From: Elusimicrobiota bacterium
GTDB lineage: Bacteria; Elusimicrobiota; Elusimicrobia; FEN-1173
Reading direction: 5' to 3'
Assembly: GCA_016714745.1 (NCBI GenBank)
Contig: JADKCG010000011.1
Coordinates: forward strand, 41,690 to 105,689
DNA: 64,000 bases
Each line of letters opens with the position of its first letter. Within the stretch, counting starts at the first letter, position 1. Shown here in pieces: positions 828 through 41,429 of the stretch. The notes beneath the pieces were generated by a model that did not search any database, had not been told where the DNA came from, and saw nothing but the letters and a program-made list of their open reading frames with translations. Position numbers and translations under genes: made by a program.

Positions 828-2611
<1,784 letters not shown>

Positions 2612-2625
2612 ATGAAAGTCCCCCT

Positions 2626-3985: not shown

Positions 3986-4031
3986 AGGGGAAGACGAGGG
4001 GGATTTTACAACTTTAACGGACCGAACGGAG

Positions 4032-5357: not shown

Positions 5358-5392
5358 GCCCTAACCATACACCCAAAACCCAACAATTTCAA

Positions 5393-5409
5393 CCCCCCCC
5401 CAAAAAAAA
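5393..5409. repeat. Homopolymer tract C9A8 in the divergent intergenic region
   Basis: aaccccccccc aaaaaaaa lies directly upstream of a TTGAAA(5422-5427)-N17-CATACT(5445-5450) promoter-like element for the pilin-like gene. Confidence 0.8.
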
Positions 5410-5475
5410 CAAAAACACCCCTTGAAAATTTTCTCTTTCGGGGGCATACTGGGTCAGATGAAGGGAGGAGGACCC

Positions 5476-6285
5476 ATGCGAGCGGCAAAAAATGTCCCAT
5501 CTTCCATAAAAGGCGTGACCTTGGTCGAATTGATGGTGATGAGCGTTATCGCGTCCCTGGTGGCGATCACCGTCATCCAAGGTTTTTCTGGAATTAGCAA
5601 AGGGATCATTGCCAGCCGATTTAAATCCCTGGGAACTCAGTTGGCGAACGAAAAAATGCAACTCATAAAGAGCACCCCCTACTATCGATTGCTTGTTTCC
5701 AGCCAGACGGTTGTTCCCACAGGGTTAGGTTCTCTCACGCCGACTGTCCAGAGCGACGAATTTAACCATCCCCCCACCGTTTCGATCGTGAATGGGGTTA
5801 CGTTTACCGCTTACACCAGAGTTCAACGTGTCGCGAAAAACTCGGCTGAAACATTGGACGTGGTCAGCTGGAACGCCCCTGAAACGGGAATTAAGCAGAT
5901 AACGGTGGACGTGGTATGGACGGAACGCAATACACTAAGACGCAGTCGTTTGATCAATCTCTTAGAAAATTCCAGCCGATTGGTTGCAAATGGGGTTTTC
6001 GTTGGGGAGGTGTGGAATGGCACCTCATTTTTGCCAAACGCTCTTGTTGAAACACTGGAAGACTCTTCATTAAAGGTCCTGTCGGACGCCGGAGGGAATT
6101 ACCGCCTGAACGCCCCCGTGGGAACTTATACCCTACGCGCATCCAAGCGAGGCTTTTTCCCGAAACCATTTTCAATTGTGTCATCACCAACTCGGCCCCA
6201 CAAACCACAGTCAATTTCACCAACCTGGTTCTCATGTCGTCCGGCACCGTTTCGGGGTCAGTTTGGCACAATGACCATTTGGTGA
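5476..6285 (+). CDS. Prepilin-type N-terminal cleavage/methylation domain protein (N-terminal piece of a larger interrupted gene)
   Basis: ATG 5476 is preceded by GGGAGGAGG. The leader MRAAKNVPSSIKG is followed by VTLVELMVMSVIASLVAITVI (G/xTLxE pilin motif). Further on there is a CarboxypepD_reg-like stretch (GNYRLNAPVGTYTLRASKRGFFP). The frame degenerates after about 6160. Confidence 0.7.
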   Translation: MRAAKNVPSSIKGVTLVELMVMSVIASLVAITVIQGFSGISKGIIASRFKSLGTQLANEKMQLIKSTPYYRLLVSSQTVVPTGLGSLTPTVQSDEFNHPPTVSIVNGVTFTAYTRVQRVAKNSAETLDVVSWNAPETGIKQITVDVVWTERNTLRRSRLINLLENSSRLVANGVFVGEVWNGTSFLPNALVETLEDSSLKVLSDAGGNYRLNAPVGTYTLRASKRGFFPKPFSIVSSPTRPHKPQSISPTWFSCRPAPFRGQFGTMTIW

Positions 6286-6297
6286 TCAGCCGAGTGT

Positions 6298-25446: not shown

Positions 25447-28247
25447 ATGAAACCTAAATTCAACGTTCAACTGCCCAGAACCCAATTCCCCATGAAAGCC
25501 GACCTTCTCTCCGGGAACCGGACACGCTCGCCCGATGGGAAAAACTGCGCCTTTACGCTCGTCTGCAAGAAAAGAACGCGGCCGGCAAACCGTTTGTCCT
25601 CCACGACGGGCCTCCGTATGCCAACGGCGCGATCCACATGGGCCACGCGTTAAACAAAGTGTTAAAAGACATCATCGTCAAATACAAATCACTGCGGGGG
25701 TTCCGATCGCCGTATCTCCCCGGCTGGGACTGCCACGGATTGCCGATCGAACACCAGCTGATGAAAGAGAAAGGCTGGGACAAACACAAGGTGGGCCGTG
25801 TGACGTTCCGTCAAGAAGCCGCGCGATACGCGGAACATTGGATCGAGATCCAGCGACGGGAGTTTAAACGTCTGGGCATTTTGGGCGAATGGGAGCATCC
25901 CTACAAAACGCTCCAGCCCGACTACGAAGCCGGAATTGTGAAAACCTTTTATGACCTTTTAGCGAAAGGCGACGTGGTTCAAGACCGAAAACCCGTGTAT
26001 TGGTGTCCCCATTGCGAAACGGCGCTGGCGGAAGCCGAGGTCGAATACGAAACCAAAACCTCCCGCTCGATCTTTGTCAAATTCCCGATTGTCGAGTGGC
26101 CGTCCAACGCGGACGCGCAAAAGTTGGCGCGCCTTCACGGGAAAAAAGTCAACGTTTTGATTTGGACCACCACGCCGTGGACCTTGCCGGCCAACGTGGG
26201 GCTGGCCTTCCATCCGGAAGGCCGATACCGCATTTGGGAATCCGCCAAAACCCACGAACGCTTTTTGGTGGGAGATCCCGGGTGGGCGATGCTGGAAGAA
26301 CTGTTCGGCGGCGGCAAAACTGACGCGCCCACGGTGGACGGTTTGTCGCTGGAGGGCCTGGTCGCCAAGAACCCCCTTAACAACAACGATTCCCAAGGTC
26401 TCTTAGCGGAATTCGTTTCTTCTTCAGAAGGCACGGGCGTGGTCCACATCGCGCCCGGCCACGGGGAAGACGACTACCGGGCGGGAAAATCCTATGGTCT
26501 CACGGTCTTATCCCCCGTGGACGACCGAGGCCGATTTTCGGACGATGTCATGCCCAACGAACTGGCCGGAAAATCCGTCTGGGACGCCAACGCCCTGATC
26601 GTTGAGCGTCTGGCGAAATCGCACCTTTTGTTAAAGGAGACGAATGTCTCCCACAGTTACCCGCACTGTTGGCGGTGCAAAAACCCCATTATTTTCCGTG
26701 CGGCCAAACAGTGGTTTTTGAAAGTTTCCGATGCGTTCCGCACCGCACTCATCCAAAGCACCAACCGGGTGGAGTGGATTCCCGAGTACGGACAGGAACG
26801 GATCCTCGGAATGCTGAAAACTCGACCGGACTGGTGCTTGTCCCGCCAACGGTTTTGGGGAACGCCGATCCCCATGTTCCTCTGCGAGTCCTGCCATGAA
26901 CCCTTGAAAGACAAAACGGTTTTCGCCAACGTGGTGGACGCGTTCCGTGCTCACGGGAGCAACGTGTGGTATGAAAAAGACCCCGCGTTTTTTGGGGTGA
27001 CATCCCCCTGTGCCAAATGCGGGCACACGAAATTCAAAAAAGACGAAGACATTTTGGACGTCTGGTTCGACTCGGGCGTTTCGTGGGTTTCGGTTCTTCA
27101 ACAGAGGCCTGAAACAAAAGGCGTGGGTCGGGCGGACGTCATGTACCTGGAAGGCTCGGACCAACACCGAGGCTGGTTTCAAACGTCGCTTTTGCCGGCG
27201 GTGGCTTTGACGGGCGAACCGCCGTACGCCCAGGTTCTCACCCACGGCTTCGTTTTGGACGGACAGGGGCACGCCATGTCAAAATCGCTTGGCAATGTCA
27301 TCGCGCCGCAAGAACTCATCGAAAAATACGGGGCCGACATCGTTCGCCTTTGGGTGTCCGTGACAGATTACCGGGAAGACGTGAGGCTTTCCCAAGACAT
27401 TTTAAACCGTGTCATCGACACTTATCGAAAAATCCGCAACACCCTGCGGTTTATCCTCGGAAATTTAGGCGACTTCGTTCCCGCCCAAAACGCCGTGCCG
27501 ATCGACAAAATGGACGTGTTGGACCTGGCGGCCCTCTCCGCTTTGAACAAGTTGGTGGAACAGATCACGCACCATTTCGACGCCCAGGAATTCCACTTGG
27601 TCACCGCCGCCTTGGCCGACCATTTCTGCATCAATACCCTCTCCGAATATTACTTGGACGTGCGAAAAGACATCCTCTACTGTGATGGCCCGAATGCCCC
27701 CCGACGACGGAGCACCCAGACGGCGCTCTGGCACATCGGGCGAACCTTGGCGCGGGCCTTGGCGCCCCTCCTTTCATTTACGTCGGAGGAAACCTGGCAA
27801 ACCTTGGCCGAACAAAAGGTGTTAGCGAAAGAAGACAACCCAGAAAGCGTGTTTCTTAACCCATTTCCGACGGAAATTTCTTTGCCGGCGGGAAAGTATT
27901 TTGTCATGGCGGACTTTCTCCGGGCCAAACGGGCGGTGAACGAAGCTGTGGAAAAAGCCCGCCAAGCGGGCACGGTTAAGGCCCCCAACGACGCCTCGAT
28001 TCGGCTCAAGATTCATGAAGGAAACGCCCCGATGAGCGGGCTCCCCCTGGAAGAGCTGGCGTCCCTCCTGGGGGTCGCGCACGTAGAGGTGGAGCTGACC
28101 GGCACCGGGGATCCCCTCTCTGTGATGAGCGTCTCCGTCGCGCCCGGCGCCAAGTGCCCCCGCTGTTGGATTTGGCGCGAAATCACCGAAGGCGGCCTCT
28201 GCGCCCGATGCCGCGACGCGGAAACCGCCGCACCCCCCAAAAAATGA
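25447..28247 (+). CDS. ileS: Isoleucyl-tRNA synthetase, frame interrupted near the N-terminus
   Basis: MKPKFNVQLPRTQFPMKADL (25447 frame) joins REPDTLARWEKLRLYARLQEKNAAGKPFVLHDGPPYANGAIHMGHALNKVLKD (25638 frame) at about 25507-25512. The KMSKS motif appears as HAMSKSLGN, and C-terminal zinc-finger cysteines are present (CPRCW...CARC). Confidence 0.92.
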
Positions 28248-29567: not shown

Positions 29568-30469
29568 AGGAAGAGAAAGAATTTGTCTTTTTGGACGAGG
29601 GAGAACGACTGGATCGGTTCCTGACGCGGTCCCTGGCTCCGCTGTCACGCACGCGAGTGCAACGACTGATCGAGGAAGGGGCGGTGACGGTGAACCGACG
29701 CACGGAACCGGCCCGCCGGCTTCTGGAGAAGGGAGATCGGGTACTGGTTCAAATTCCAACCTTCTCCGCTCTTCCCCCCGCCGCTGTTGAAAGTGTTCCG
29801 ATCCTGTATGAAGACGGCGATATCATTGTGGTGGACAAACCGGCAGGGGTGGTGGTGCACCCCGCGGGGCCCTACCGAACGGATACGCTGATCCAACGAC
29901 TGTGGCCAAAACTTTCCGCGGGGTGGGCCGTCACCGGTCAACGACCCGCCACCGATCGACCCGGCGTGGTTCACCGATTGGACAAGGGCACCTCCGGCGT
30001 GATGGTGATCGCCAAAACTCCCGCCGCCGCCGAAAACATCTCCCACCAGTTCGCGGCGCGAACGGTGAAGAAAACCTATTGGGCCTTGGTGCAGGGAACA
30101 CTCACGGCCCCCGGACGAATTCGGTCGTTGGTCGGACGATCCCGCCACACTCCCCAAAAAATGTCCACCGAGAGCGGCCGCCCTTCAGAAACAGAATACA
30201 TCGTTTTAAAAATCTTCCCCAAAACCCATCCCCCCACCACGCTTTTAGAAGTTCATCCGCGAACCGGACGAACCCACCAAATCCGGGTCCAATTGGCGGC
30301 GCTGGGACACCCGCTCGTAGGAGACACCCTCTACGGCGGCCCCCCGGGCCCGCGACCCCTCCTCCACGCCCTGCGGATTGAATTCCGTCATCCTCGATCC
30401 GGAAAAATCCTATCGTTCCAAGTCCCCCCCCCGGGGGACGTCGTTGTTCCCACCCACGCCGAGACCTAA
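29564..30469 (+). CDS. rluD: RluA/RluD-family pseudouridine synthase
   Basis: The N-terminus is S4-like (RLDRFLTRSLAPLSRTRVQRLIEEGAVTVN). The catalytic motif is HRLDKGTSGVMVIAK, followed by RTHQIRVQLAALGHPLVGDTLYG. Confidence 0.88.
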   Translation: MKEEKEFVFLDEGERLDRFLTRSLAPLSRTRVQRLIEEGAVTVNRRTEPARRLLEKGDRVLVQIPTFSALPPAAVESVPILYEDGDIIVVDKPAGVVVHPAGPYRTDTLIQRLWPKLSAGWAVTGQRPATDRPGVVHRLDKGTSGVMVIAKTPAAAENISHQFAARTVKKTYWALVQGTLTAPGRIRSLVGRSRHTPQKMSTESGRPSETEYIVLKIFPKTHPPTTLLEVHPRTGRTHQIRVQLAALGHPLVGDTLYGGPPGPRPLLHALRIEFRHPRSGKILSFQVPPPGDVVVPTHAET

Positions 30470-30574
30470 CCTGAAAATTCCAGTTGACTGAGCATTTCCG
30501 TCCGGGAGGGTAGGAAAATTCTGTTCCGGACCCTGTCGACGGTATCCCTGTGCCAACCGGGGAATCCCGGCTAA
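30467..30574 (+). repeat. About 105-nt imperfect-palindrome intergenic repeat, copy 3
   Basis: taacctgaaaattccagttgactgagcatttccgtccgggagggtaggaaaattctgttccggaccctgtcgacggtatccctgtgccaaccggggaatcccggctaa. Confidence 0.9.
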
Positions 30575-30632
30575 CCCCAATCACAGCGATTCGATTTTCA
30601 ATAGGCCGCGGCGTGAGACAAAAAATTCCCGG

Positions 30633-31704
30633 TTATGGTTTTCGGCGTGGTTTGGGGGGCTCTTTTTTTCCCATCAGAGCGAGTATTTCTCGGAACTCGC
30701 TGACGGCTTCATCCAAGTCGTCTTTGGCGGGTGGGGAAGGAGGAGGGAGATCGGGAAGAGCTTGGGCTGGGACAGTGGAGGCAGAGGTGGAGGGCATCTG
30801 GGGGATCGCCCATTCGTGGAGCGCTGTCTCTGGTGCCGGCGGCGGAGAGGGGGGGACGATGGGCGGCGGGATCACAGACCGCAGAGCCGCGGGGGAGAGA
30901 ACAGGCGGAGTCTCAGGCGCGGGGATTTTGGGCGCGGGAACCGGGGGAACGGGAACCGCGGGAAGTTTCGGAGGGGCCTTTGGTTCGGGGAGCGGGGGGG
31001 GGTAGGCTTTGGGACGCGTCAGCTGAATCGCCATTTCGCCGATGCTTTGGGCCAATTCTGTCAACTCGTTTTTTCCTGAAAAAGCCGTCATGGCCAATCC
31101 TTTTTCCCCTCGCGCCACACGGTCCGCCCAAGCCCGCATGTTTTGAATGGGGCGAATCACCGCATGGGCCAGAGCCCATAGAAACGCTAAACCGAAGAAC
31201 ACCACCAACCCCAACCCCCCCATCAGTCCCAAATGGTTGCGTTGGAGTTCCCGAACCACTGTATTTTCAGATTGTACCTTGGCGTTTTGAACGCGGCGTT
31301 TGATGCCGTCAAATTTAATGAGCGCACCTCGGCTGTTCGGCGAAAATTCTTTTTCCACCAGGGCCATGGCTTGGACCCGTTTCCCCGGATTTCGTCCCCG
31401 TGGGCTTCCCCTTTTTAACCGCGCCCGCCCACTCCTCGAGCCGTTGCCGCGCTTGAGCGGAGACCTGCACGAGCTGAAGCCGCTCCGACTCATCTCCCAA
31501 AAGAACATAGCTCTCCAACAAACGCACTTGACGCACAAAAAAATACTCGATGTCCGTGACCGCGGCAAATGTTTTCATGGCTCGGCGGCCGTTCAGGAAC
31601 GCCATTTCTTCACGCCGGACATTGATGAAACACCAAGCCATCACAACGCCCGACGACACAGCAAACAGCAAAGAAAACAAAATCACTTTCGATCGGATTC
31701 TCAC
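30633..31704 (-). CDS. Membrane protein with HAMP domain and proline-rich C-terminal tail, frame interrupted once
   Basis: A GTG start at 31704 overlaps the upstream stop. TM1 is RSKVILFSLLFAVSSGVVMAW. ..RQRLEEWAGAVKKG joins SPRGRNPGKRVQAMAL... at the C/T runs 31408-31416. TM2 plus a HAMP-like segment follows (AHAVIRPIQNMRAWADRVARGE...ELTELAQSIGEMAIQL), then a PPPLPEPKAPPKLPAVPVPPVPAP tail. Confidence 0.6.
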
Positions 31705-33353
31705 GGCCGTCCCCCTCCGGATTCTTTTTTAAGTTTGGCGATCTCGTTGTAGACGTCAGAGAGGGTGATCCCCGTGGGACCATATTTCTTTAAGATCCGT
31801 TCCAAGAGCGAAAGCCGTTCGGCCTTGTCGGCCCCTTGAGCAACGGTCTTTTTATAAAAATCCATGGTGATGCGATAATCTGTGGTCACCTGGGCCAGCT
31901 CGGAGTTCACCCGTTCCAATTCCTGAACCGCTGAAGTCACGTCGACCCCTTTGTTGTTGTATTTCTCCAGAGTGGATTTCAGAAGGACCGACCGTTCCTC
32001 CAAACCCGCGCCGCGGGAAACGCGCGTGTTGTAGGCGCGCATGGCGGAATCGAAAGCGGTCGTGTATTCTTGGCGGGCTTTTTGCCGGGACAAACGTTCC
32101 CGTTCCTCGGACGTCAAACGCCGGTTGGGAACGACGACGCTGGTCACATTTGTTTTTTTCGCTTCTTCGAGGTCGGCTTTCAGCCGCTCCAGCTCCGCGG
32201 CGTAATCGCCCAACAGCTTGTTCCGCTCTTCTTTCACAAAAGCGGCTTCTGACTCCACCGCTCTCATCGCGGCTTCCGCGCGCGCCGTCGCCTCACGTTC
32301 CCGCTGAAGTTCTTCAGCCAGATCATCCTCGGATATGGCGTGGCCAAATTTAAAGGACAAGGACACGTTCTGCTGATTGCCCATCCCGTCCGCCGCGCCC
32401 AGGGGAATGGTGAACACGTAATCCAACACAAGCCCGCTCACCTCATAGCCGCCCCCAAAATTCACTTGACGAAAATCCCGCCCCCGACCCCCGCCCCCCC
32501 GCGGAGAGAAAGCAGACCATACCGTTTGAATCCCCATTGTCGTTCTCCACCGAAATGAAGCCGGGTATCTGACTGGCTCTGTAAATAGGTCCGCTGACTG
32601 ACCTCCACGCTGATTTTGCTGTATGTTTTGTCAAATACCGCGCCGATTCGAGTGATCATGGGAAGTCGCAATGTTTGCGAGAGTCCCATGTCCGGCCGGT
32701 TGGCGTTCTCAAAAGACAGCCCCGCCCGAAATCGCGACGAGAGGGCGTAGAGACCGCCCAGATCCACACCCACAGCGGATTTACCGTGGCCGTTTTTAAA
32801 CACCGGATCCTCCGCAAACGTCCGGGCGCCGGGGTCGTTGCCCGAAAACCCATTTAAGGTATCGGCATTTTGACCGAAGGTGCGATCCAACTTTTAAGCC
32901 CACCCCTAAGGCCAGCCTGTCCGATAAAAAGGGACGGCCGTAGGCAAGGGTTATCGTCCGTTCTTTGAAGAGACTATCCACCCGGAACTCATGATATCCA
33001 ACGCCAAACCCGCCCCACCGTCCGTCCGCGGGAAGTGGGAGCGCCGCGCCAACGAACGTTTGCGCCGTTTTGCTCTGGTCCGAGAGGCCTGGGAACGGCC
33101 GCGCGTAGTAAGCCGTGACCTCGGAACGGTACAAGCTCGCCAACCCCGCTGGGTTGTAGTACAAACTATGGACATCGTCCGCCACCGCGGTAAAGGCTTC
33201 CCCCAAGGCCGCCGGCCGGGCACCAACGGGGAATTCGTCGAAAGCGAACAACGGACCCGAGAAGAGGAGAGCGGTGAAGGGCCACAAAAGAATCGTTTTC
33301 ATCCCCCCCCTGAGAGGACGACGAAACACCCTTTTCGCTCGAAGCAAGTTCAT
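31701..33353 (-). CDS. PorV/PorQ/UPF0164-like outer-membrane beta-barrel fused to a long C-terminal coiled coil, frame interrupted twice
   Basis: A signal peptide is followed by EFPVGARPAALGEAFTAVADDVHSLYYNPAGLASL, the motif typical of PorV-type barrels. Three ORF pieces (32796-33353, 32462-32890, 31701-32537) join at the T run at about 32888-32896 and in the G/C-rich 32477-32500. The C-terminal roughly 200 aa are heptad-like (AEELQREREATARAEAAMRAVESEAAF...). Confidence 0.55.
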
Positions 33354-33745
33354 CGGGCCACCACCACAACACCGCTTAAGACAGAACCTTCACCGTCGAT
33401 TTTGTAAACGTAGGGGCCGGACGGGACCCTGTTGCCGTTCTCGTCGCGACCGTCCCAAACAAAGCTGTCGGGTGTGGGGATATTGTCAGACACGGCAACG
33501 AGCGACGCCACGTGGGACCCAGACATATCAATAATAACACCAGAGACTTGGGCCAAACGGGGGTTATCCACCTTAAAATAAACCACATCATTGATTCCGT
33601 CGCCATTGGGGGAGAAGATGCGGGGAAAGACATCCGTGTCCGGGTTAAGGGACAAACAAATCCCCACCGCGGGCGCGGCGAGGATCGTCAAAATAATCCC
33701 TAAAAATAACATCATACGTGTGTCGATCATTGTTGTCAGTCTCAT
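33350..33745 (-). CDS. Small secreted/membrane-anchored protein consisting of a FlgD-Ig/CHU_C-like module
   Basis: A TM/signal segment (MMLFLGIILTILAAPAVG) is followed by FPRIFSPNGDGINDVVYFKVDNP...FVWDGRDENGNRVPSGPYVYKIDGEGSVLSGVVVVAR. The same module ends the upstream 535-aa protein. Confidence 0.6.
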   Translation of the reverse strand: MRLTTMIDTRMMLFLGIILTILAAPAVGICLSLNPDTDVFPRIFSPNGDGINDVVYFKVDNPRLAQVSGVIIDMSGSHVASLVAVSDNIPTPDSFVWDGRDENGNRVPSGPYVYKIDGEGSVLSGVVVVAR

Positions 33746-33752
33746 AAATGAA

Positions 33753-35360
33753 TCAGCGGGCGATAACCATCGTCCCTGTGATGGTTTTTCCCTCCCCCTT
33801 GATCTGATATATGTATACACCCGGAGGCACGCTCTGTCCAGAGGAATCTCGGCCGTCCCATGTCAGGGTATCCTCCGTGGGCGCGCCTGAGCCAGCGGGG
33901 CGGAGAACGCCCACTTCGGCCCCTCCCATATCGATGATTCGTCCGCTCACAGAAGACTGTTTCGGGTTTTGAATCACGAAATAGATCAGATCGTTAATTC
34001 CGTCCCCGTTCGGCGAGAAGATCTGAGGGAAGACCGCGGCCTTATCCAGCGTCAGTTCTGTCGCCACATCAAATTGACGAATTTGGTAGACCCCTTGAAC
34101 CGCCGTATTAAACGATACCGTCAGGTCTCCCGCGCCCACCCCCCTCTCTTCAACATTCGCTTGCGCCACTTTGACCCATGTGGCGCCGTTCCACCACAAG
34201 ACCCCCATCTTATTTTTATCCAAGCCGCCGTTTCCACCTTGATAATTGAGGACCACCGTCATTTGAGGACGGGACAGGACCATCTCTTTCGGCGCGGGAA
34301 CACCGTTGGGTTCGCGCAAACAAAGCGTGTAAGTGGCTCGGGTCCGGCTCCCCCCCGCGTTGGCCAGTGACGAAGTCTCCGGCTCCACACAGAGAAGGAA
34401 ATTCTTTTGGCTGGTCTTAAGTTCCGGGATCAGCCCTTCCGGCACAAAGGCCCGGCTGTACGTCCCGTTTTGGGCAGTGCCGGTTTGTCCCAGGAACCGC
34501 TGAGGCGTGACGTGAAGGAAATTGGAACGCGCGATCGCGGACGTTCGTCCGGTTGTATCAACGGCAACAATGAGGAAATAGGTATCGGCCGCTGGGGTCG
34601 GAATGTCCACAGAGAGTGGGCCAGCCATGGGAACCGATGCGAAGACCGTGCTGGACGCCGCGAAATCGAATAAGCTCGGAGAACGATACACCTCGTATGA
34701 AGCCAAATCCATGATGGGCGTGCCGTCCTCATTTTGAGTGACGGCCGGCCAGGTAATGGTGTAGCCAGGGGTTGTGCGGGTGACCACAAACCCAGCGACG
34801 GGAGCCGGAGGCTTGGTATCGCCCAGGCTCTTCGTATAAACAAAAGCTTGTAGGACCGGAGTGGCCGCCTTTGTATCAATCGGCGACGAATTTCCTTTAA
34901 GATCAACGCTCTCGAGCGCAAACCAATAGGAAGTGCCGGGAGTTAAGTTGGCCTGCATGGTTTCAGCGTTTCCAGGATCCGCCGGAATTGACGGTGGGGA
35001 TCCCGCCGTCAACGCTTTGTTCCACCAGGTCGTTGTGCTCCCACCGCCCGCCATTTCGCTGGAGATGGAGAAGGTGGCGTATTTCACGGTATAAGAGTTG
35101 ACCGGGGCGGTTGTTGTGAACAACCACCCGTTATCTTCAGGCGCTGTCCATGTGAGAATAACTTCACCAGGCACGATCGTGGCCAGCGCGGCCAAATCGA
35201 GCACAGCGTCAGGCGCGAAGGTGTCGTTGATGTTGATGGTGAGGTTGAGGTCTTCCGTGAGCGCGGCCCTCCCAGGCACCGCCCCCAAAGACAAAAGGAC
35301 TCCGAGGGTCGCCCACAGCGACCCACGCAGGACTTTCATCAAAGCCTCGTTCCTCTTCAC
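33753..35360 (-). CDS. Secreted multi-domain protein (Fn3-like repeats) with C-terminal FlgD-Ig/CHU_C-like module
   Basis: Signal peptide. Fn3-like segments (LTWTAPEDNGW...YTVKYA; YTITWPAVTQNEDGTPIMDLASYEVYRS). The C-terminus reads FPQIFSPNGDGINDLIYFVIQNP...LTWDGRDSSGQSVPPGVYIYQIKGEGKTITGTMVIAR. Confidence 0.6.
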   Translation of the reverse strand: MKRNEALMKVLRGSLWATLGVLLSLGAVPGRAALTEDLNLTININDTFAPDAVLDLAALATIVPGEVILTWTAPEDNGWLFTTTAPVNSYTVKYATFSISSEMAGGGSTTTWWNKALTAGSPPSIPADPGNAETMQANLTPGTSYWFALESVDLKGNSSPIDTKAATPVLQAFVYTKSLGDTKPPAPVAGFVVTRTTPGYTITWPAVTQNEDGTPIMDLASYEVYRSPSLFDFAASSTVFASVPMAGPLSVDIPTPAADTYFLIVAVDTTGRTSAIARSNFLHVTPQRFLGQTGTAQNGTYSRAFVPEGLIPELKTSQKNFLLCVEPETSSLANAGGSRTRATYTLCLREPNGVPAPKEMVLSRPQMTVVLNYQGGNGGLDKNKMGVLWWNGATWVKVAQANVEERGVGAGDLTVSFNTAVQGVYQIRQFDVATELTLDKAAVFPQIFSPNGDGINDLIYFVIQNPKQSSVSGRIIDMGGAEVGVLRPAGSGAPTEDTLTWDGRDSSGQSVPPGVYIYQIKGEGKTITGTMVIAR

Positions 35361-35384
35361 GGCACTCTTAACCTCCTCTCAATA

Positions 35385-36296
35385 TTACTCGGTGGTCACG
35401 AAGACCCTTGAAAATATGCTCAGGGGGAAGTCATATCCGTCCATCTCCGCTTGAATGAGGAAAAGGAATTTCTTTCCTTTGTTCTCCGGAATGTCCGGGA
35501 TTGTCAACGTCAGGTCTGTCCCCTTGATCTGATCCGGTTTAATTTTCATGCGAGGCGATGTGATGTTCAACCACGCCGGATCCGGGACATCCCATCCTGT
35601 TTCTTTCTGGGTGTTGTCGGTGCGAACGCTGGTCAACTTCAGCTTAACGGGATCGTTGCCTCGGTTTGTCACCTTTAAGAGAATATTTTTCATTCCCTTT
35701 AACGTAACAGGTTTCCCGAGCGGAACATTCTCCAACCGGTTGACCGTCGGTGTCAGGGCCAGGTCCAAAGCGCCCAGAACCATGCGTTTCTTCTCTTTTT
35801 TGGCCGAGGAGGGACCCATCGCTCCAACGGTGAACCGAATGAAGCTGTTGATGGCCACGGCGATTTCTTCCGGTCCCTCGGATCCCGCATGAATGTTCAC
35901 CTGGAAGTGGCGTCCGATCAGTTTCGGATCATTGGGCACCGAGAGAATCACTTCCGCGCTGGCCAGATCACCGGCGCCCAACTTGAAACGGTTCGGAATA
36001 ATTTTCAACCATTCCGGATTGGGGATCGGCTCGAAATCCAATTTTGCTCCCGCAGGGCCGGGAACAGGGATTTCGGGAACCACGCTCACTTCGATGGGGT
36101 AATCCGAGCCGTTAATGAGCACATAGGGCACGCCCCGAATCTGACGGATATTGATGTCAGACCCCGGCTGAACGTTTTCCATCTCAATCTCAGGAAACCG
36201 AACGGCCAGGGACAACTTTCCCCATGCGGTCGATCCCAAAAGAAAGAAGACGCCCAGAACCCATCCACACTGAATTCGTCCTAATTTATTGCCCAT
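35385..36296 (-). CDS. Secreted protein with an internal two-fold duplication (hypothetical)
   Basis: Signal peptide (WVLGVFFLLGSTAWG). The two halves share a pattern: IPNPEWLKIIPNRFKLGAGD..VILSVPNDPKLIGRHFQVNIHA versus VPDPAWLNITSPRMKIKPDQ..LTLTIPDIPENKGKKFLFLIQA. Confidence 0.5.
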   Translation of the reverse strand: MGNKLGRIQCGWVLGVFFLLGSTAWGKLSLAVRFPEIEMENVQPGSDINIRQIRGVPYVLINGSDYPIEVSVVPEIPVPGPAGAKLDFEPIPNPEWLKIIPNRFKLGAGDLASAEVILSVPNDPKLIGRHFQVNIHAGSEGPEEIAVAINSFIRFTVGAMGPSSAKKEKKRMVLGALDLALTPTVNRLENVPLGKPVTLKGMKNILLKVTNRGNDPVKLKLTSVRTDNTQKETGWDVPDPAWLNITSPRMKIKPDQIKGTDLTLTIPDIPENKGKKFLFLIQAEMDGYDFPLSIFSRVFVTTE

Positions 36297-36449
36297 GCGA
36301 TTTCTCCTTCATCTCGTCGTTGTCATTTCGCATTCGAGACGCTCTTCTCGGTTCGCTCAGAAAGACAACCGCCAGGTCAGACGCTTCAACGTCCTCTCTA
36401 AAACGGCGTTCTTGCAAAACCGAAACGCGATCCCTTCTGCGAGAGAGTC

Positions 36450-36989
36450 TTAGTTGGCCGATACCTCCACGGTAAACGACCGCAGGGTCATGATGGTCGA
36501 CGAGGTCGGCATGTCGATCTTAAACCACAGACCGCGGGTCGTCGTCGCGTTGAACACAGAACCGTCTTGGTCGCCGGAATACACAGCGCCAACGCCCGTG
36601 GCCAACACCGCCGACCCTTGCGTCACCACATCGTCGTTCGCGAGGAAGTTGCCCGCCGCCGGCGCCACCGAGTTAAACAACGCCCGCAGGTTATAGCGGT
36701 CCGCTCCGACCGTCGAACTCGACGTCCACACGCCGTCCGCCGTCTTGATCCGCAGTCCCAACGTTTCGGGAACTGTCCCGTTGTTGGTCACGGTCACTGA
36801 CGAACTCACGTTGTCAACGGACCCCAAGGTGAGCGTGCCGAGGGCCAACGTTCCCGTCGACAAGGTCAAGCTCTTCGATCCGTTCGGCGTCACGGTGAGG
36901 ATCAAGTCCGCCGTCGTTGCCGCTTTCACTCCTGAACCAAACAGCATGAGGCTTCCCAAAACAAGAAGCCCGGTGAGTGTTTTTTTCAT
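36450..36989 (-). CDS. Secreted 179-aa putative surface/fibre subunit, tandem copy A
   Basis: MKKTLTGLLVLGSLMLFGSGVKA/ATTADLILTVTPNGSKSLTLSTGTLALGTLTLGS...TVTNNGTVPETLGLRIKTADGVW...LWFKIDMPTSSTIMTLRSFTVEVSAN. RBS is GGAGACACACA. The 201-aa ORF-track version includes a non-genuine upstream extension. Confidence 0.7.
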   Translation of the reverse strand: MKKTLTGLLVLGSLMLFGSGVKAATTADLILTVTPNGSKSLTLSTGTLALGTLTLGSVDNVSSSVTVTNNGTVPETLGLRIKTADGVWTSSSTVGADRYNLRALFNSVAPAAGNFLANDDVVTQGSAVLATGVGAVYSGDQDGSVFNATTTRGLWFKIDMPTSSTIMTLRSFTVEVSAN

Positions 36990-37066
36990 TGTGTGTCTCC
37001 TTAGTTGGCTGCTACGTCCACGGTAAACGACCGCAGGGATGAGTATTCTTTTCATTGTCTGTCTCC

Positions 37067-37606
37067 TTAGTTGGCTGATACTTCCACGGTAAACGACCGC
37101 AGGGTCATGATGGTCGACGAGGTCGGCATGTCGATCTTAAACCACAGACCGCGGGTCGTCGTCGCGTTGAACACAGAACCGTCTTGGTCGCCGGAATACA
37201 CAGCGCCAACGCCCGTGGCCAACACCGCCGACCCTTGCGTCACCACATCGTCGTTCGCGAGGAAGTTGCCCGCCGCCGGCGCCACCGAGTTAAACAACGC
37301 CCGCAGGTTATAGCGGTCCGCTCCGACCGTCGAACTCGACGTCCACACGCCGTCCGCCGTCTTGATCCGCAGTCCCAACGTTTCGGGAACTGTCCCGTTG
37401 TTGGTCACGGTCACTGACGAACTGACGTTGTTAACGGACCCCAAGGTGAGCGTGCCGAGGGCCAACGTCCCCGTCGACAAGGTCAAGCTCTTCGTTCCGT
37501 TCGGCGTCACGGTGAGGATCAAGTCCGCCGTCGTTGCCGCTTTCACTCCTGAACCAAACAGCATGAGGCTTCCCAAAACAAGAAGCCCGGTGAGTGTTTT
37601 TTTCAT
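37067..37606 (-). CDS. Secreted 179-aa putative surface/fibre subunit, tandem copy B
   Basis: Differs from copy A by only a few residues (NGTKS for NGSKS, SVNNV for SVDNV) and is offset by exactly 617 nt. Confidence 0.7.
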   Translation of the reverse strand: MKKTLTGLLVLGSLMLFGSGVKAATTADLILTVTPNGTKSLTLSTGTLALGTLTLGSVNNVSSSVTVTNNGTVPETLGLRIKTADGVWTSSSTVGADRYNLRALFNSVAPAAGNFLANDDVVTQGSAVLATGVGAVYSGDQDGSVFNATTTRGLWFKIDMPTSSTIMTLRSFTVEVSAN

Positions 37607-37683
37607 TGTGTGTCTCCTTAGTTGGCTGATACTTCCACGGTAAACGACCGCAGGGATGAGTATTCTTTTCATTGTCTGTCTCC

Positions 37684-38224
37684 TTAGTTGGCTGATACTT
37701 CCACGGTAAACGACCGCAGGGTCATGATGGGCGACGAGGTCGGCATGTCGATCTTAAACCACAGACCGCGGGTCGTCGTCGCGTTGAACACAGAACCGTC
37801 TTGGTCGCCGGAATACACAGCGCCAACGCCCGTGGCCAACACCGCCGACCCTTGCGTCACCACATCGTCGTTCGCGAGGAAGTTGCCCGCCGCCGGCGCC
37901 ACCGAGTTAAACAACGCCCGCAGGTTATAGCGGTCCGCTCCGACCGTCGAACTCGACGTCCACACGCCGTCCGCCGTCTTGATCCGCAGTCCCAACGTTT
38001 CGGGGAACTGTCCCGTTGTTGGTCACGGTCACTGACGAACTGACGTTGTTAACGGACCCCAAGGTGAGCGTGCCGAGGGCCAACGTCCCCGTCGACAAGG
38101 TCAAGCTCTTCGTTCCGTTCGGCGTCACGGTGAGGATCAAGTCCGCCGTCGTCGCCGCTTTCACTCCTGAACCAAACAGCATGAGGCTTCCCAAAACGAG
38201 AAGCCCGGTGAGTATTTTTTTCAT
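37684..38224 (-). CDS. Secreted putative surface/fibre subunit, tandem copy C, with a 1-nt insertion (G4 versus G3 at 38002-38005)
   Basis: ORFs 37925-38224 and 37684-37995 together reproduce copies A and B. The span is 541 nt versus 540. Confidence 0.65.
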
Positions 38225-38298
38225 TGTGTTCCTCCTGTTGTTTATGATTTTGTGCCTTCAATTTCGGCCAACCCCTAAGGTTCCGATTGACCTTCTTC

Positions 38299-38327
38299 TA
38301 TATACCCCCAAAATACCCACTTTTCAA
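38299..38327 (-). promoter_or_regulatory. Sigma-70-type promoter for the tandem subunit operon
   Basis: The minus strand reads TTGAAA-N17-TATATA (plus-strand tatata 38299-38304, tttcaa 38322-38327). An A/T-rich tract lies upstream, and the site is about 70 nt 5' of ATG 38224. Confidence 0.5.
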
Positions 38328-38771
38328 GGCTTTTTTTATAAATTTAACAATCAATTTAAAGCTGTAAATATAGATCGATTATTGTTTTTAATAATACCCG
38401 ACATTGTCTCGGCCCTGTTTGGTTCCGGATTGTTTGAGAAATGGATATTGTTGGTATATTTTTGCCGCTATTGGTTTTGTGATTGGTTGTCCGTAACGGC
38501 GGTTCGAATGCTGGAGGGAGAAAAATTTTATGGATTTTATGGCACGGGATTGCGACCGCGCCAGCGGAAGTTCCGCAGGGGAGCGACCGGCCCGTGAGAG
38601 GAACGGGCGCTGTGAGAATCCCGTTTTTGTTTGGACCCGGACTTTGCAATAGGCGCCAGCACCGAGAGGAAGAAGCCGGTGACTGTTGCGACGAGAAACG
38701 CGAAAGCGGTGCGGTGTCTACGGCTGAGAAAAAGTCCCAGATTCTTCGTCTTGAAAAATCGGGGTGAAGCC

Positions 38772-39992
38772 TCAGGAAGAGCGGGAAACGTCTTTCAAAA
38801 CTTTACCGGGCACTCGTCGCAACATTTTTCCATCCCACAGCGACGCCGCCCCCAGCGAATCGTCAATCATCTTTTCCATTTCGAGTTCGACTTCTAACCG
38901 CCGAATAATGTCAACCGCCACATTGGTCTTTGGCTTTTTAGACAGAAGCGAGCAACAGTCTTTGTAGGGTTGAATGGCCAGGTCGAACACATAGATCTTC
39001 CGGGCTAAATCAATAATCGAATTTTTATCGGAGGCGATGAGGGGCTGGAACACCGAGACCGACAACCCCGTCTGAACCGCCAGAAGATTGTCGATGGTTT
39101 GACTGGCGACCTGCCCGAGACTGTCCCCGGTGACAAGGCCTTGATAGCCCAGCCGGCCCGCGAGGGCCTCGGCCGTGCGAAACATGAACCGCCGGAAGAA
39201 TACGGTTTCGAAAGCGGTGGGCACCCGGAGAGACGCGGACACCTGGTAACGGTCGTGGGGAACCAGAAAAAGACGGATCTCCGGGTTCGAGGTTTTGAGC
39301 ACGTCAAAAAGTTTAGTGATTTTTGTGCCGATCACCTCTTCTGAAGATCGATAGGGATGAAAGTGCAACAGGTCCACCCGGGCCCCCCTCCGCATCATGA
39401 GCCACGCCGCCACGGGCGAGTCAATACCGCCAGAGAACAAACACAACATCCGCCCCGACGTCGCCTGAGGCATGCCCCGCACCCCTTCTGCTCGCCCCGA
39501 CGCCACAACGATTTCGTTGGTTAAAATTTCCACATAAATCGCCAAATCCGGCCGATGGAGGTTCACGGTGAGCCCCGCGGCCCCGATCACCGATTCCCCT
39601 AACCGAACGCAGATCTCCTGGGAGACCAACGGATAATTTTTGACGGACCGGCGGGCGTGGATCTTAAACGATTTCACAGCGGGGTCCCGGCACGCCTCCA
39701 TCAAGGCGGCCGCTTCGACCTGCGCAAACCCAATGTCTTCCGGGGTCCAAGGAAAGATTTTTCCAAACGCATACCAGGCCACGCCGAACACCTGATCCAA
39801 TGCATGACCGACCCGTTCCCGAGAAGCGTCGGGCGCCAATTCGCCAATCACGCGAGCGCTCTCCAACCGAACGGTCAGCGCGTCCGCGCCCAACCGCCGG
39901 CGGATGTCATCGGTAAACTTCCGCTCAAACATCCGGCGGTTGCCGCCTTTCGTCCCCAACTCCGAATAGTGAACCACCACGACGTCTTTCAT
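38772..39992 (-). CDS. thiI: tRNA 4-thiouridine synthase ThiI
   Basis: MKDVVVVHYSELGTKGGNRRMFE (THUMP-type N-terminus), PP-loop LFSGGIDSPVAAW and LVTGDSLGQVASQT. Confidence 0.88.
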   Translation of the reverse strand: MKDVVVVHYSELGTKGGNRRMFERKFTDDIRRRLGADALTVRLESARVIGELAPDASRERVGHALDQVFGVAWYAFGKIFPWTPEDIGFAQVEAAALMEACRDPAVKSFKIHARRSVKNYPLVSQEICVRLGESVIGAAGLTVNLHRPDLAIYVEILTNEIVVASGRAEGVRGMPQATSGRMLCLFSGGIDSPVAAWLMMRRGARVDLLHFHPYRSSEEVIGTKITKLFDVLKTSNPEIRLFLVPHDRYQVSASLRVPTAFETVFFRRFMFRTAEALAGRLGYQGLVTGDSLGQVASQTIDNLLAVQTGLSVSVFQPLIASDKNSIIDLARKIYVFDLAIQPYKDCCSLLSKKPKTNVAVDIIRRLEVELEMEKMIDDSLGAASLWDGKMLRRVPGKVLKDVSRSS

Positions 39993-40310: not shown

Positions 40311-41429
40311 ATGAAAAACAATCTGTCTCGTTATTTGGAAGGGTCTATTCGCAAAGACTTGGAGCGAAAAATGGTCTTTGTGGGTGGACCCCGCCAAGTG
40401 GGGAAGACGACCTTGGGAAAATCCCTGCTGGCGTCCCCCTCGGGCTATCTCAATTGGGATGTGCCGGACCATCGGGAACACATCCTCTCGCGGGAGCTCC
40501 CCCCGACCTCTCCCCTTTTGTTTGATGAAATCCACAAGTACCGAGGCTGGCGGAATTATTTAAAAGGTCTGTATGATGCGGGCGACAGCCGGCACGTTTT
40601 GGTCACGGGAAGCGCGCGACTGGACTTTTATCGATTTGGCGGAGATTCGCTTCAAGGCCGATATCATTACTACCGGCTCCATCCTTTTTCCGTGGCCGAG
40701 CTGGGAATCTGTTCGGAAAAAGATTTCCACCAATTGCTCACCCTGGGCGGTTTTCCAGAACCCTTTTTGTCGGGATCCCACACCGAAGCCAAACGGTGGG
40801 CTCGAGAAAACCGTGACCGCCTCATTCGGGAAGACATTGTGGGTCTGGAAACGATACAGGATCTTGGGCAAATGGAACTTCTGGCTCTGCGGCTTCCTCA
40901 ATTGGTGGGGAGCCCCCTCTCGATCAATGCCCTGCGGGAAGATCTTCAGGTCAGCCACAAAACTCTCTCCCGATGGATTGTCGTTTTTGAACGGACCTAC
41001 GCCTTATTCCGTTTGCCCCCCTTGGGCGGTCCCAAATTAAGGGCGGTCAAAAAAGAGCAAAAACACTACCACTACAACTGGGCGCTTGTTCCGGAGGAGG
41101 GGCCCCGATTTGAAAATATGGTCGCCGCTCATCTTTTGAAATGGGTGGATTACCATGTGGACACCGAGGGCCGAGATTTGGAACTTCGCTATTTCCGAGA
41201 CGTGGACGGACGCGAGGTGGATTTTGTCATCACGGAGGACGGTCACCCTCTGCGCCTCGTGGAATGCAAATGGTCGGAGGCGTCGGTCAATCCAACGTTA
41301 TTTTACCTCAAACGCCGGTACCCCAAAGCCGACGCGTGGCAAATATCTGCTGTCGGAAAAAAAGAGTATAAAACACCAGAAGGAATCCGCGTCTCCCCTG
41401 CCTTAACATTCCTGCAGACCCTCATGTAA
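40311..41429 (+). CDS. AAA-type ATPase of the DUF4143-containing family
   Basis: Walker A GGPRQVGKTTLGK, LFDEIHKY, and the family-typical C-terminus (YFRDVDGREVDFVI...LVECKW). Confidence 0.75.
   Translation: MKNNLSRYLEGSIRKDLERKMVFVGGPRQVGKTTLGKSLLASPSGYLNWDVPDHREHILSRELPPTSPLLFDEIHKYRGWRNYLKGLYDAGDSRHVLVTGSARLDFYRFGGDSLQGRYHYYRLHPFSVAELGICSEKDFHQLLTLGGFPEPFLSGSHTEAKRWARENRDRLIREDIVGLETIQDLGQMELLALRLPQLVGSPLSINALREDLQVSHKTLSRWIVVFERTYALFRLPPLGGPKLRAVKKEQKHYHYNWALVPEEGPRFENMVAAHLLKWVDYHVDTEGRDLELRYFRDVDGREVDFVITEDGHPLRLVECKWSEASVNPTLFYLKRRYPKADAWQISAVGKKEYKTPEGIRVSPALTFLQTLM

Follow-up and report, generated by a model that had tools for sequence, protein, structure and literature searches.

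Eight genes at positions 30633-38327 of the window (the whole stretch of 64,000 nucleotides that was analysed) lie together on the minus strand, comprising three copies of a gene for a 179-aa subunit and genes for a 303-aa protein, a 535-aa protein, a 131-aa protein, an outer-membrane barrel and a HAMP-domain membrane protein. The question raised by this locus is whether these proteins act together and, if so, what they build. The original prediction was an uncharacterized surface fibre or coat assembly module. The conserved gene order and the support gained by both of the analogies drawn at that time, to chaperone-usher pili and to T9SS, favour this proposal; however, the match of the subunit to pilin folds lies below significance and some of the genes are frame-broken. 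The module may be a new way to build or display cell-surface fibres. The reading that we tentatively prefer, with a probability of roughly 0.45, is a pilus-like fibre and adhesin-display system that would use a chaperone-like escort and have a PorP-type barrel platform in place of the usher. Every element listed in the original prediction was found on the minus strand where it had been placed, and the features are as follows.

38341-38368, minus strand: second promoter candidate, TTTACA-N16-TAAATT, from a consensus scanner
38299..38327, minus strand: promoter-like TTGAAA-N17-TATATA, read directly, ~75 nt ahead of the ATG of the first subunit gene; function predicted only
7 nt before the ATG at 38224 (subunit copy A), minus strand: AGGAGG ribosome-binding site
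37684-38224, minus strand: subunit copy A, 179 aa after removal of one C (38002-38005)
37607..37683, minus strand: inter-copy spacer 1, a remnant with the first 16 nt and the last 38 nt of the subunit gene and a second ribosome-binding site
37067-37606, minus strand: subunit copy B, 179 aa
36990..37066, minus strand: inter-copy spacer 2, a remnant identical in makeup to spacer 1
36450-36989, minus strand: subunit copy C, 179 aa, 2 aa different from copy B
35385-36296, minus strand: 303-aa secreted protein, two homologous ASH/PapD-like Ig domains and a joining helix
33753-35360, minus strand: 535-aa secreted protein, N-terminal Fn3-like modules and a CHU_C / type-B-CTD-like / FlgD-Ig-like C-terminal domain
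33350-33745, minus strand: 131-aa protein, nothing but a signal or anchor sequence and a CHU_C-like domain; the stop codon and the start of the barrel gene overlap (ATGA)
31701-33353, minus strand: outer-membrane barrel of the PorV/PorQ-PorP/SprF superfamily with a helical extension
30633-31704, minus strand: HAMP inner-membrane protein with TM1, a helical periplasmic domain of ~150 aa, TM2, HAMP, a Pro-rich tail and a conserved C-terminal helix

The predicted promoter TTGAAA-N17-TATATA is present by direct reading, but it is not listed by the consensus scanner, which proposes the second candidate instead. The subunit copies are separated by 77 nt, with 153 nt before the 303-aa gene and 24 nt before the 535-aa gene. 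Whether the 535-aa and 131-aa genes are 7 nt apart or overlap is a matter of the start assigned to the latter, ATG at 33745 or GTG at 33820, respectively. The 131-aa/barrel and barrel/HAMP junctions are 4-nt ATGA/GTGA overlaps, which suggest translational coupling and thus argue against a chance juxtaposition of unrelated hypothetical proteins or a decaying locus with pseudogenes. What does speak for chance or decay is the presence of five frame-breaking lesions in the 7.7 kb of the locus, affecting three of the eight genes, which the earlier description had overlooked although all of its elements are there. In subunit copy A the run at 38002-38005 contains a surplus C, and the gene falls into two frames as sequenced (NCBI annotates its N-terminal fragment as IPN90_07700); the barrel gene is split over three frames by lesions near 32895 and 32499; and the HAMP gene is split over frames, with gaps near 31416 (1 nt) and 31386 (67 nt) when set against locus L001. 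Since IleS, an essential gene in the same window, is likewise frame-broken, the lesions are most simply assembly indels rather than decay, and the barrel and HAMP orthologues are intact. Furthermore, seven distinct loci of uncultivated Elusimicrobia, in addition to the window, keep the six genes in this order: L001, L002, L003, L004, L005, L007 and L008 (L010 is the same locus as L002, and L006 repeats L005 on a shorter contig that ends inside the 535-like gene). L001, L002 and L008 show the order of the window, and L003/L004, L005 and L007 provide three further flanking contexts, each different and unlike that of the window. Because of this synteny, chance or decay is effectively refuted and is given next to no weight here. 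The original prediction had named two findings that would speak against a module, namely a known family for the subunit and the 303-aa protein, or a gene order not conserved in relatives; instead, neither protein matched a known family and the order was conserved, including in unrelated flanking contexts.

The three subunit genes are near-identical, as had been noted, with 98-99% identity and differences of 4-10 nt and 2-4 aa between copies. Copy B consists of a signal peptide (...VKA/ATT), an amphipathic strand, ADLILTVTPNG, and a beta-rich domain of ~140 aa ending FTVEVSAN. Hydrophobic residues alternate along the mature N-terminus, ATTADLILTVTPNGTKS, which is conserved across the wide family and resembles the N-terminal extensions of FimG and FimF (ADVTITVNGKV and ADSTITIRGYV); in the AlphaFold monomer this strand lies outside the sheets. 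An exhaustive profile search found ~1400 representative clusters of the family at E<=1e-3 and 675 at E<=1e-10. The earlier inability to assign the subunit to a family is borne out, as it has no home in Pfam or NCBIfam: the subunit and 73 family members gave no match in Pfam, and one of the 73 weakly matches an NCBIfam fimbrial model (E 1.6e-4). The nearest PDB folds of the subunit model (pLDDT 80) are almost all donor-strand fibre subunits (CsuA/B, CS20, TasA, FimF/G/I/A, PapE, CfaB, Caf1, Sulfolobus thread and CanA), with CsuA/B of the archaic Csu pili as the top structural neighbour. The match to pilins in the PDB search is weak (best E 7e-3, TM 0.3-0.5, none at E<=1e-3), and the modelled fold can be called weakly pilin-like. 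An hhalign comparison of the subunit family with a FimA/I/F/G alignment gave a probability of 2.4%. The mature subunit contains no Cys, and thus the invariant Cys pair of type 1 pilins is missing and there is no conserved disulfide. TasA (8aur), the Sulfolobus thread (7pnb) and CanA (7uii), which are among the structural neighbours, belong to systems in which Ig-like or jelly-roll subunits polymerize through N-terminal donor strands with no chaperone; unlike the present module, these systems occur in monoderms or archaea and need no outer-membrane component or dedicated escort. No sequence match of the subunit to TasA, thread or CanA proteins was found, and the sole link to TasA / peptidase M73 is the weak fold match to 8aur (E 2.6e-2), the subunit having no Pfam match. 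The weak fold match, the 2.4% probability and the missing Cys pair were counted against a fibre.

The 303-aa protein had been described as an internal twofold duplication, and its N- and C-terminal halves are indeed 23% identical (E 2e-9). Its model (pLDDT 83) contains two ASH/PapD-like domains and places it firmly among the ASH/PapD-like two-domain proteins. The fold matches HYDIN-type ASH proteins at E 1e-12 and FimC, CfaA, Caf1M, CupB2, SafB and CsuC at E ~1e-7, so that ASH-domain ciliary proteins are matched better than chaperone-usher chaperones. At the sequence level there is no PapD match in Pfam, the hhalign probability against FimC is 0.1%, and profile searches gave no match to any described family. 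The protein is a candidate for a periplasmic escort or chaperone of the subunit domain, a reading that is not specific because tandem Ig/ASH domains are common; this lack of specificity and the 0.1% value were also counted against a fibre. Genetic coupling of the 303-like gene to the subunit domain was observed directly: it follows a subunit-domain gene immediately in 11 of the 12 distinct loci with sequence downstream of one (the arrangement is listed for the window, L001, L002, L003/4, L005, L007, L008, L012, L016, L017, L019 and L020).

With these two proteins, the suggested likeness to chaperone-usher pili gained support, as the ASH/PapD-like fold matches chaperones and donor-strand pilins are the best, though weak, neighbours of the subunit. 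Features common to this module and to chaperone-usher pili of the type 1/P and archaic Csu/CupE kinds are an Ig-like subunit (~16 kDa) that is exported by the Sec route and has, once mature, an N-terminal amphipathic strand and then N-G; adhesins, here adhesin-like proteins, with a subunit-type domain at the C-terminus; and a dedicated two-Ig-domain partner, here putatively periplasmic, that is encoded beside the subunit and whose model matches FimC, Caf1M and CsuC. However, the partner here differs from chaperone-usher chaperones in having 303 aa, two mutually homologous domains and a linker helix; Pfam Fimbrial (PF00419), SCPU (PF05229) and PapD matches are lacking; and the gene order is adhesin, subunit, escort. 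There is also no usher (~800 aa, PF00577): the sole barrel is of ~300 aa and of the 14-strand PorP/PorV type, and the window cassette and its relatives contain no outer-membrane gene of usher size. In line with the earlier remark on the window, no cassette contained an usher, sortase or ATPase gene, and this was counted against a fibre as well.

The adhesin-like proteins are long members of the subunit family. Among the best 150 family matches, 31 exceed 300 aa, and in 29 of these 31 the subunit domain ends <=6 residues from the C-terminus, with the match starting at about profile position 34-42. Their N-terminal parts contain FG-GAP, LamG, Fn3, LTD and galactose-binding-like domains, and these proteins of up to 3214 aa look from their sequences like extracellular adhesins; the Fn3-like modules of the 535-aa protein occur repeated in them. 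The genes of such giant proteins adjoin the cassette or lie immediately upstream of it in L003/4, L005, L007, L012, L014, L016 and L017. In three of nine giant proteins (L005, L016 and L020) a weakly aligned alternating strand precedes the subunit domain in cis, which blurs the argument that the donor strand is found only in free subunits and was counted against a fibre.

The position of the domain at the extreme C-terminus is also that of T9SS CTDs, and it would be explained if the module sorted and anchored proteins in the manner of a T9SS 'shuttle' and built no fibre. In that case the domain of 140 aa would be a C-terminal sorting or anchor domain that is read by the 303-aa escort and the PorV/PorP-like barrel and tethers giant adhesins to the outer membrane, while the free 179-aa proteins would be either coat proteins present in large amounts, as monomers or in two-dimensional form, or else competitors or caps at the same receptor. 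This reading, which we consider rather unlikely, is favoured by L019 and L020, where the 303-like gene directly follows the giant adhesin with no free subunit between them and the stretches examined show only these two genes. On the other hand, a pure sorting signal leaves no role for three features of the free forms, namely the conserved amphipathic strand at the N-terminus, the amplification in tandem and the separate promoter; the CTD profiles, type A and type B alike, do not match the ~140-aa domain; and its fold neighbours are fibre subunits, not CTDs.

The genes downstream bear on the same alternative. The 535-aa and 131-aa proteins had been said to share a C-terminal module of about 90 aa, and an alignment of 93 aa with 54% identity (E 2e-30) agrees with this. 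The module scores just above the cut-off of 27 for Pfam CHU_C (28.1 bits in the 535-aa and 30.9 bits in the 131-aa protein) and below the cut-off of 35 for TIGR04131 (24.5 and 25.2 bits), and FlgD_ig matches the same stretch as CHU_C. The barrel occupies approximately residues 35-335, ends in a beta-signal-like SLSFKF and is followed by a C-terminal helical extension of ~215 aa. Its orthologues, of 526-545 aa and intact in all cases, align with the PorV_fam profile over positions 6-326 of 326 (E 1e-14 to 7e-18) and with the PorP/SprF profile over positions 33-292 of 292 (E 1e-7 to 7e-11), in keeping with the PorV/PorQ type that had been proposed. These intact orthologues do not reach the curated cut-offs, with 55-65 bits versus 90 for PorV_fam (NF033709) and 31-42 versus 90.55 for PorP (TIGR03519). 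Divergent homologues carry PF11751 and the NCBI name PorP/SprF, and in these TPR repeats replace the helical extension. The appendage, helical or TPR, is periplasmic on the grounds that it lies C-terminal to the barrel, and recalls PorE of T9SS, which contains TPR repeats.

A complex of PorE with PorP is documented, and proteins with a type-B CTD bind the PorP-like barrel adjacent to them (PMC9143113). The suggested likeness to T9SS type-B/PorP logic was strengthened by the full-length barrel alignments and the type-B-CTD-like tails: as in PG1035-PorP-PorE and SprB-SprF, a superfamily barrel is encoded immediately after proteins with CHU_C / type-B-CTD-like ends. CHU_C-like tails in the same operon, and a barrel from a superfamily whose known members bind CTDs (PMC9143113; PMC12618676), are what a sorting and anchoring system would also contain. 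However, T9SS is described as confined to Bacteroidota/FCB, whereas the host here is an Elusimicrobia MAG; the main product, the subunit, has no CTD; and the barrel and TIGR04131 tail scores are under the NCBIfam cut-offs. No T9SS translocon gene was found in the window or the cassettes: PorK/L/M/N, SprA/Sov and PorU were absent from the cassettes and from a scan of ten more ORFs (426-760 aa) in the window, which also counts against the sorting and anchoring reading.

The helical extension had been described as a coiled coil of about 200 aa; the barrel and the extension are there, but only ~60 aa are coiled-coil-like, the remainder being two helical repeats of ~55 aa (31% identity, E 4e-8). 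The last gene encodes, as predicted, a HAMP-domain membrane protein (35 bits versus a cut-off of 25) with a Pro-rich tail. No kinase or MCP output follows the HAMP domain in the window protein or five orthologues, only the tail and a short conserved helix. A long periplasmic extension on the barrel (TPR repeats in the divergent homologues), a last gene product that sits in the inner membrane, has a large helical domain in the periplasm and lacks a signalling output, and the absence of an encoded export machine would all suit a module of envelope architecture that exports nothing. The barrel and its coiled coil would tether the outer membrane to the wall or the inner membrane, as in OmpM/SlpA-type and Omp-alpha-type proteins, with the Ig-like proteins as a periplasmic scaffold and the HAMP protein as the inner-membrane partner. 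We regard this as improbable, since the fusions to FG-GAP, LamG, LTD, Fn3 and galactose-binding-like domains resemble extracellular adhesins, and variable, recently amplified subunit copies can be reasoned to suit a surface structure better than a housekeeping tether. In addition, some subunit/303 pairs have neither a barrel nor a HAMP gene in their vicinity. No barrel was seen in the examined stretches of the distant cassettes L016 and L017, an observation that was counted against a fibre.

A barrel with a helical part encoded in the operon of a fibre subunit is also found in the Pseudomonas Fap system, where the coiled coil of FapF spans the periplasm and FapF exports the fibre subunit, its substrates crossing unfolded (PMC5557850). 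FapF differs, however, in its N-terminal coiled coil and in its substrate, an amyloid repeat protein; the present module has a C-terminal helical part, a PorV/PorP-like barrel and an Ig-like subunit, and a relation between the two was not detected at the sequence level. A 14-strand barrel could pass only unfolded chains.

According to the preferred reading of a pilus-like fibre and adhesin-display system, the module would span the envelope and build or display a proteinaceous surface fibre or adhesin array. The 179-aa protein, Sec-exported, encoded in three tandem copies and with an Ig-like domain after a conserved amphipathic N-terminal beta-strand, would be the major structural subunit. Beta-strand complementation of the kind known from chaperone-usher pili, TasA fibres and archaeal threads may connect the subunits head to tail, and the giant adhesin-like proteins may enter the fibre through their C-terminal subunit domain as tip or side adhesins. 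The 303-aa protein would escort or cap the subunit domain in the periplasm. If T9SS type-B CTD/PorP pairs are a guide, an outer-membrane platform or anchor could be formed by the PorP/PorV-like barrel together with the 535-aa and 131-aa proteins, docked by their CHU_C-like tails; the periplasmic helical extension and the HAMP protein would link this platform to the inner membrane. Across the loci, the subunit copy number ranges from 1 to 3, and in L003/4 and L005 the cassette adjoins GGDEF and glycosyltransferase genes.

The eight genes at 30633–38327 form a real, conserved and unannotated envelope module. Their order, whose conservation in relatives had been proposed as a check against chance juxtaposition, was found in seven further distinct loci (L001, L002, L003, L004, L005, L007 and L008). 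L006 was not counted separately, as it covers the L005 site on a contig that is shorter and ends inside the 535-like gene. The conserved order comprises one to three subunit genes, a 303-like gene, genes for proteins of ∼500–536 aa and ∼91–180 aa as called, a barrel gene with a helical extension and a HAMP gene; the L002 gene in the 91–180 aa slot was probably called too short. The synteny of the window (FliD–FliS–ThiI … RluD–Lgt–LspA–IleS) is shared by L001 and L002, L008 carries the same cassette as these three, and L003/L004, L005 and L007 represent three further genomic contexts, with subunit identity to the window dropping to 43–47% among the cassette loci. Since the six-gene order is repeated in seven other loci, also in differing contexts, chance juxtaposition is ruled out. 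A phage origin of the locus was also rejected, the window locus being surrounded by housekeeping and flagellar genes.

The folds of the parts are recognizable; for their combination no description was found in the families or the literature searched, and its features were rated as relating to strand-complemented surface fibres and to anchoring by a T9SS C-terminal domain (CTD) and PorP, both known kinds. The most far-reaching interpretation, held at a probability of about 0.3, is that the locus could encode a previously unrecognized usher-independent fibre-assembly pathway of uncultivated diderms. A new Ig-like domain family of ∼1400 clusters would be common to pilin-like subunits and giant tip adhesins. 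A PapD/ASH-like two-domain chaperone would attend to both, and an oligomeric PorP/PorV-type barrel would serve as their mount or export channel, together with adaptors resembling type-B CTD proteins and a HAMP partner in the inner membrane. If true, this would add a third solution to chaperone–usher and T9SS, and might form an evolutionary link between the two.

The subunit is, as originally described, a beta-rich secreted protein: a signal peptide (VKA/ATT) is followed by a conserved N-terminal segment, ADLILTVTPNGTKS, in which hydrophobic residues alternate, a beta-rich domain and the conserved FTVEVSAN end. Its placement outside any recognized family held in the profile searches, as neither Pfam nor NCBIfam gave a match above threshold for the subunit and 73 family members, and a profile search against PDB sequences gave no match. 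Sub-threshold matches of the subunit, these relatives and the 303-aa protein were to choice-of-anchor D and fn3_5, the ASH-like choice-of-anchor D being weakly matched by eight of the 73 relatives. An exhaustive profile search retrieved 1400 representative clusters at E ≤ 1e-3 (675 at E ≤ 1e-10), and the domain family is therefore large and unannotated. Among the 150 best matches, 31 are longer than 300 aa (maximum 3214 aa), and in 29 of these 31 the domain ends within six residues of the C-terminus, its match beginning at about profile position 34–42. The N-terminal parts of these long proteins carry FG-GAP, LamG, Fn3, LTD, kelch-like (called by eye from one protein, P0127) and galactose-binding-like modules together with signal peptides, an adhesin-like make-up. 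A weakly aligned alternating strand precedes the domain in three of nine giant proteins examined, so that absence of the N-terminal strand from the giants is a tendency and no rule.

In the AlphaFold model of the subunit (pLDDT 80), residues 24–40 are not in sheets. The PDB neighbours that Foldseek gave for this model are without exception weak (best E 7e-3, TM 0.3–0.5), yet overwhelmingly donor-strand fibre subunits: CsuA/B, CS20, TasA, FimF/G/I/A, PapE, CfaB, Caf1, SafA, the Sulfolobus thread and CanA. In its N-terminal motif the subunit is similar to the extensions of FimG (ADVTITVNGKV) and FimF (ADSTITIRGYV), which is a likeness and no test; an hhalign profile–profile comparison of the Fim pilins with the subunit family was negative, and the invariant Cys pair of these pilins is missing from the subunit. 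Isopeptide or disulfide linkage, the former having been suggested as a feature to look for, was rejected, because Cys is absent from the mature subunit and conservation of K39 and E175 is confined to the close clade and does not extend family-wide.

The 303-aa protein was correctly recognized as an internal duplication, its halves being homologous at E 2e-9, and it likewise falls outside described families, with no match in Pfam, NCBIfam or PDB-sequence profile searches. Its predicted model (pLDDT 83) contains two Ig domains connected by a helix, and Foldseek firmly places this model in the ASH/PapD-like superfamily, with matches to HYDIN-type proteins (E 1e-12), CEP192 SPD-2 and P. gingivalis 2qsv (E 8.5e-10). 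The chaperones FimC, CfaA, Caf1M, CupB2, SafB and CsuC of chaperone–usher systems match the model at E ∼1e-7; hhalign of the protein with E. coli FimC was negative. For function, gene order gives the strongest clue: a 303-like gene lies directly 3' of a subunit-domain gene in the window, L001, L002, L003/4, L005, L007, L008, L012, L016, L017, L019 and L020, from which we infer a direct action of the 303-aa protein on this domain. Such coupling is not found in the Planctomycetia locus L011, the phage-like contig L015 or L014, where the contig ends early. In L019, where the 303-like partner is a single-domain version, and in L020, the preceding gene encodes a giant adhesin with no intervening free subunit. 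Both loci are well accounted for by the main rival explanation, a non-fibrous sorting or anchoring system in which the subunit domain is a C-terminal anchor signal, yet this leaves the amplified free subunits with their conserved N-terminal strand unexplained.

The barrel had been described as carrying a PorV/PorQ/UPF0164-type motif, and the alignment of intact orthologues indeed spans the whole PorV/PorQ profile (E 1e-14 to 7e-18), although at 55–65 bits against a cut-off of 90; the PorP/SprF profile is also aligned over its entire length (E 1e-7 to 7e-11). The barrel ends in the beta-signal-like SLSFKF, after which a 215-aa helical extension follows. In the usual topology of outer-membrane barrels an extension after the C-terminal beta-signal is periplasmic, and the extension is placed there for this reason. 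Of the coiled coil of ∼200 aa originally proposed, the helical nature stands, whereas its being wholly coiled coil does not: a coiled-coil-like stretch is followed by two repeats of ∼55 aa. Divergent Elusimicrobiota homologues of the barrel (P0251–P0255; 31–37% identity) carry TPR repeats instead of the coiled-coil extension and match Pfam PorP_SprF, P0253 being named PorP/SprF by NCBI. This suggests that beyond Bacteroidota there is a broader class of such barrels, PorP-like and bearing helical appendages in the periplasm.

The C-terminal module said to be shared by the 535-aa and 131-aa proteins was recovered as a 93-aa tail with 54% identity (E 2e-30), which marginally passed Pfam CHU_C and matched TIGR04131 and FlgD_ig under cut-off. 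T9SS type-B CTD proteins bind a PorP-like barrel encoded beside them (PMC9143113); the same adjacency of genes for CTD-like proteins and a PorP-like barrel is seen here. The T9SS is not described for this phylum in the literature searched, and, as first reported for usher and core T9SS genes, the cassettes and ten further window ORFs (426–760 aa) scanned contained no gene for a T9SS core component, an usher or a secretin. The last gene encodes the expected HAMP membrane protein with a Pro-rich tail, laid out as TM1, a periplasmic helical domain, TM2, HAMP, the tail and a conserved C-terminal helix; no output domain was found in it.

Every cassette protein except the HAMP protein has a Sec signal, and the subunit domain is common to small free proteins and giant adhesins. 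In the proposed fibre pathway, free subunits would polymerize via the N-terminal strand and adhesins would join via their C-terminal domain, while in the periplasm the 303-aa protein would escort or cap the subunit domain. The CTD-like 535-aa and 131-aa proteins might dock on the barrel to form an outer-membrane platform, which the helical extension and the HAMP protein would join to the inner membrane. A folded Ig domain cannot pass a 14-strand barrel; the chains would either cross unfolded or use another translocon. A possible parallel for unfolded export is FapF, a coiled-coil-bearing trimer through which chains cross unfolded (PMC5557850).

Two sizeable families lacking a curated model are defined by the locus, one being the subunit domain and the other its partner with two domains; the locus ties both to barrels of the PorP/PorV type in bacteria other than Bacteroidota. 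Elusimicrobia, like the candidate phyla related to them, are nearly all uncultivated. The subunit domain would allow giant adhesins to be recognized and annotated in metagenomes. If the subunits polymerize by strand complementation, a new usher-less route of pilus biogenesis would be defined, and a role of PorV/PorP-like barrels and CTD-like domains in phyla lacking T9SS would be shown.

All eight genes lie on the minus strand as initially mapped, with 4-nt overlaps of start and stop codons at the 131/barrel and barrel/HAMP junctions. The three subunit genes are near-identical, as noted from the start, differing by 4–10 nt (2–4 aa) in a tandem unit of 617 nt. They are separated by two spacers:

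36990–37066, minus strand, inter-copy spacer with remnant and second ribosome-binding site
37607–37683, minus strand, inter-copy spacer with remnant and second ribosome-binding site

In the remnant, the opening 16 nt of the gene are fused to the closing 38 nt; with the duplicated ribosome-binding site, the remnant creates an alternative in-frame ORF of 201 aa. It goes back to a copy that had undergone an internal deletion and was later amplified along with the unit. The promoter-like TTGAAA-N17-TATATA sequence is present (38327–38299), in an AT-rich stretch that contains a second site of this kind. Rfam over 30000–39200 gave no riboswitch before the subunit genes, the sole match being a sub-threshold IMES-2 inside the 535-aa gene. 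The 153-nt gap that separates copy C from the 303-aa gene was considered as the site of an attenuator or terminator; this was rejected, as the gap does not fold better than shuffled sequence (z = −0.07).

The subunit sequence is identical to that of an Elusimicrobia metagenome-assembled-genome protein (locus tags IPN90_). Five frame lesions occur in the locus: one extra C in copy A (38002–38005), gaps of 2 nt (∼32895) and 1 nt (∼32499) in the barrel gene, and gaps of 1 nt (∼31416) and 67 nt (∼31386) in the HAMP gene. Homopolymer runs lie in or next to most of them, and all orthologous barrel (526–545 aa) and HAMP (323–385 aa) genes are intact. The essential gene IleS starts at 25447 and changes frame at ∼25501–25526 (within the stretch 25447–25640), with its first ∼18 codons in one frame and the remainder, from …SLREPDTLARWEKL, in another. 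This break indicates assembly indel errors and bears on all frameshifts in the window; because essential genes are also affected, the five lesions are read as assembly errors and not biology, although the 67-nt gap could be a genuine deletion. Phase variation at the copy A C-run was rejected in view of similar indels in IleS and at four other sites in the locus.

The only clear genome match obtained outside Elusimicrobia is L011 (Planctomycetia MAG CAZABB010000006.1), in which the subunit domain is C-terminal in two proteins (1–648 and 2034–6857), one of 1608 aa, with neither a 303-like nor a barrel gene in the 10 kb examined; the narrow-alignment search for related loci gave five genome loci and sampled the breadth outside Elusimicrobiota thinly. 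A 175-aa family member, P0062 (profile E 1e-36), is encoded at 8115–8642 of L015, a phage-like Logan SRR26786846 contig on which terminase large-subunit fragments and a major head protein are encoded a few genes further downstream. In L003/L004 (1–9648) the cassette adjoins genes for a response regulator, a CHASE-PAS histidine kinase, GGDEF and HEAT proteins and a GT2-YaiO fusion, and in L005 (16637–17743) a GGDEF response regulator gene, which hints at c-di-GMP and biofilm-linked regulation. Band_7 (and NfeD) genes, situated between ThiI and the cassette in L001 and L007, are replaced in the window by a 550-nt AT-rich intergenic region (38225–38771), and the space between ThiI and FliS (40311–41429) holds an ATPase gene of the AAA_14/DUF4143 type, an assignment made from its synteny with L002. 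Two further window ORFs, one of 441 aa (4032–5357) with no Pfam match and one of 576 aa (6298–8028) with CarboxypepD_reg as its only family match, may encode extra surface proteins.
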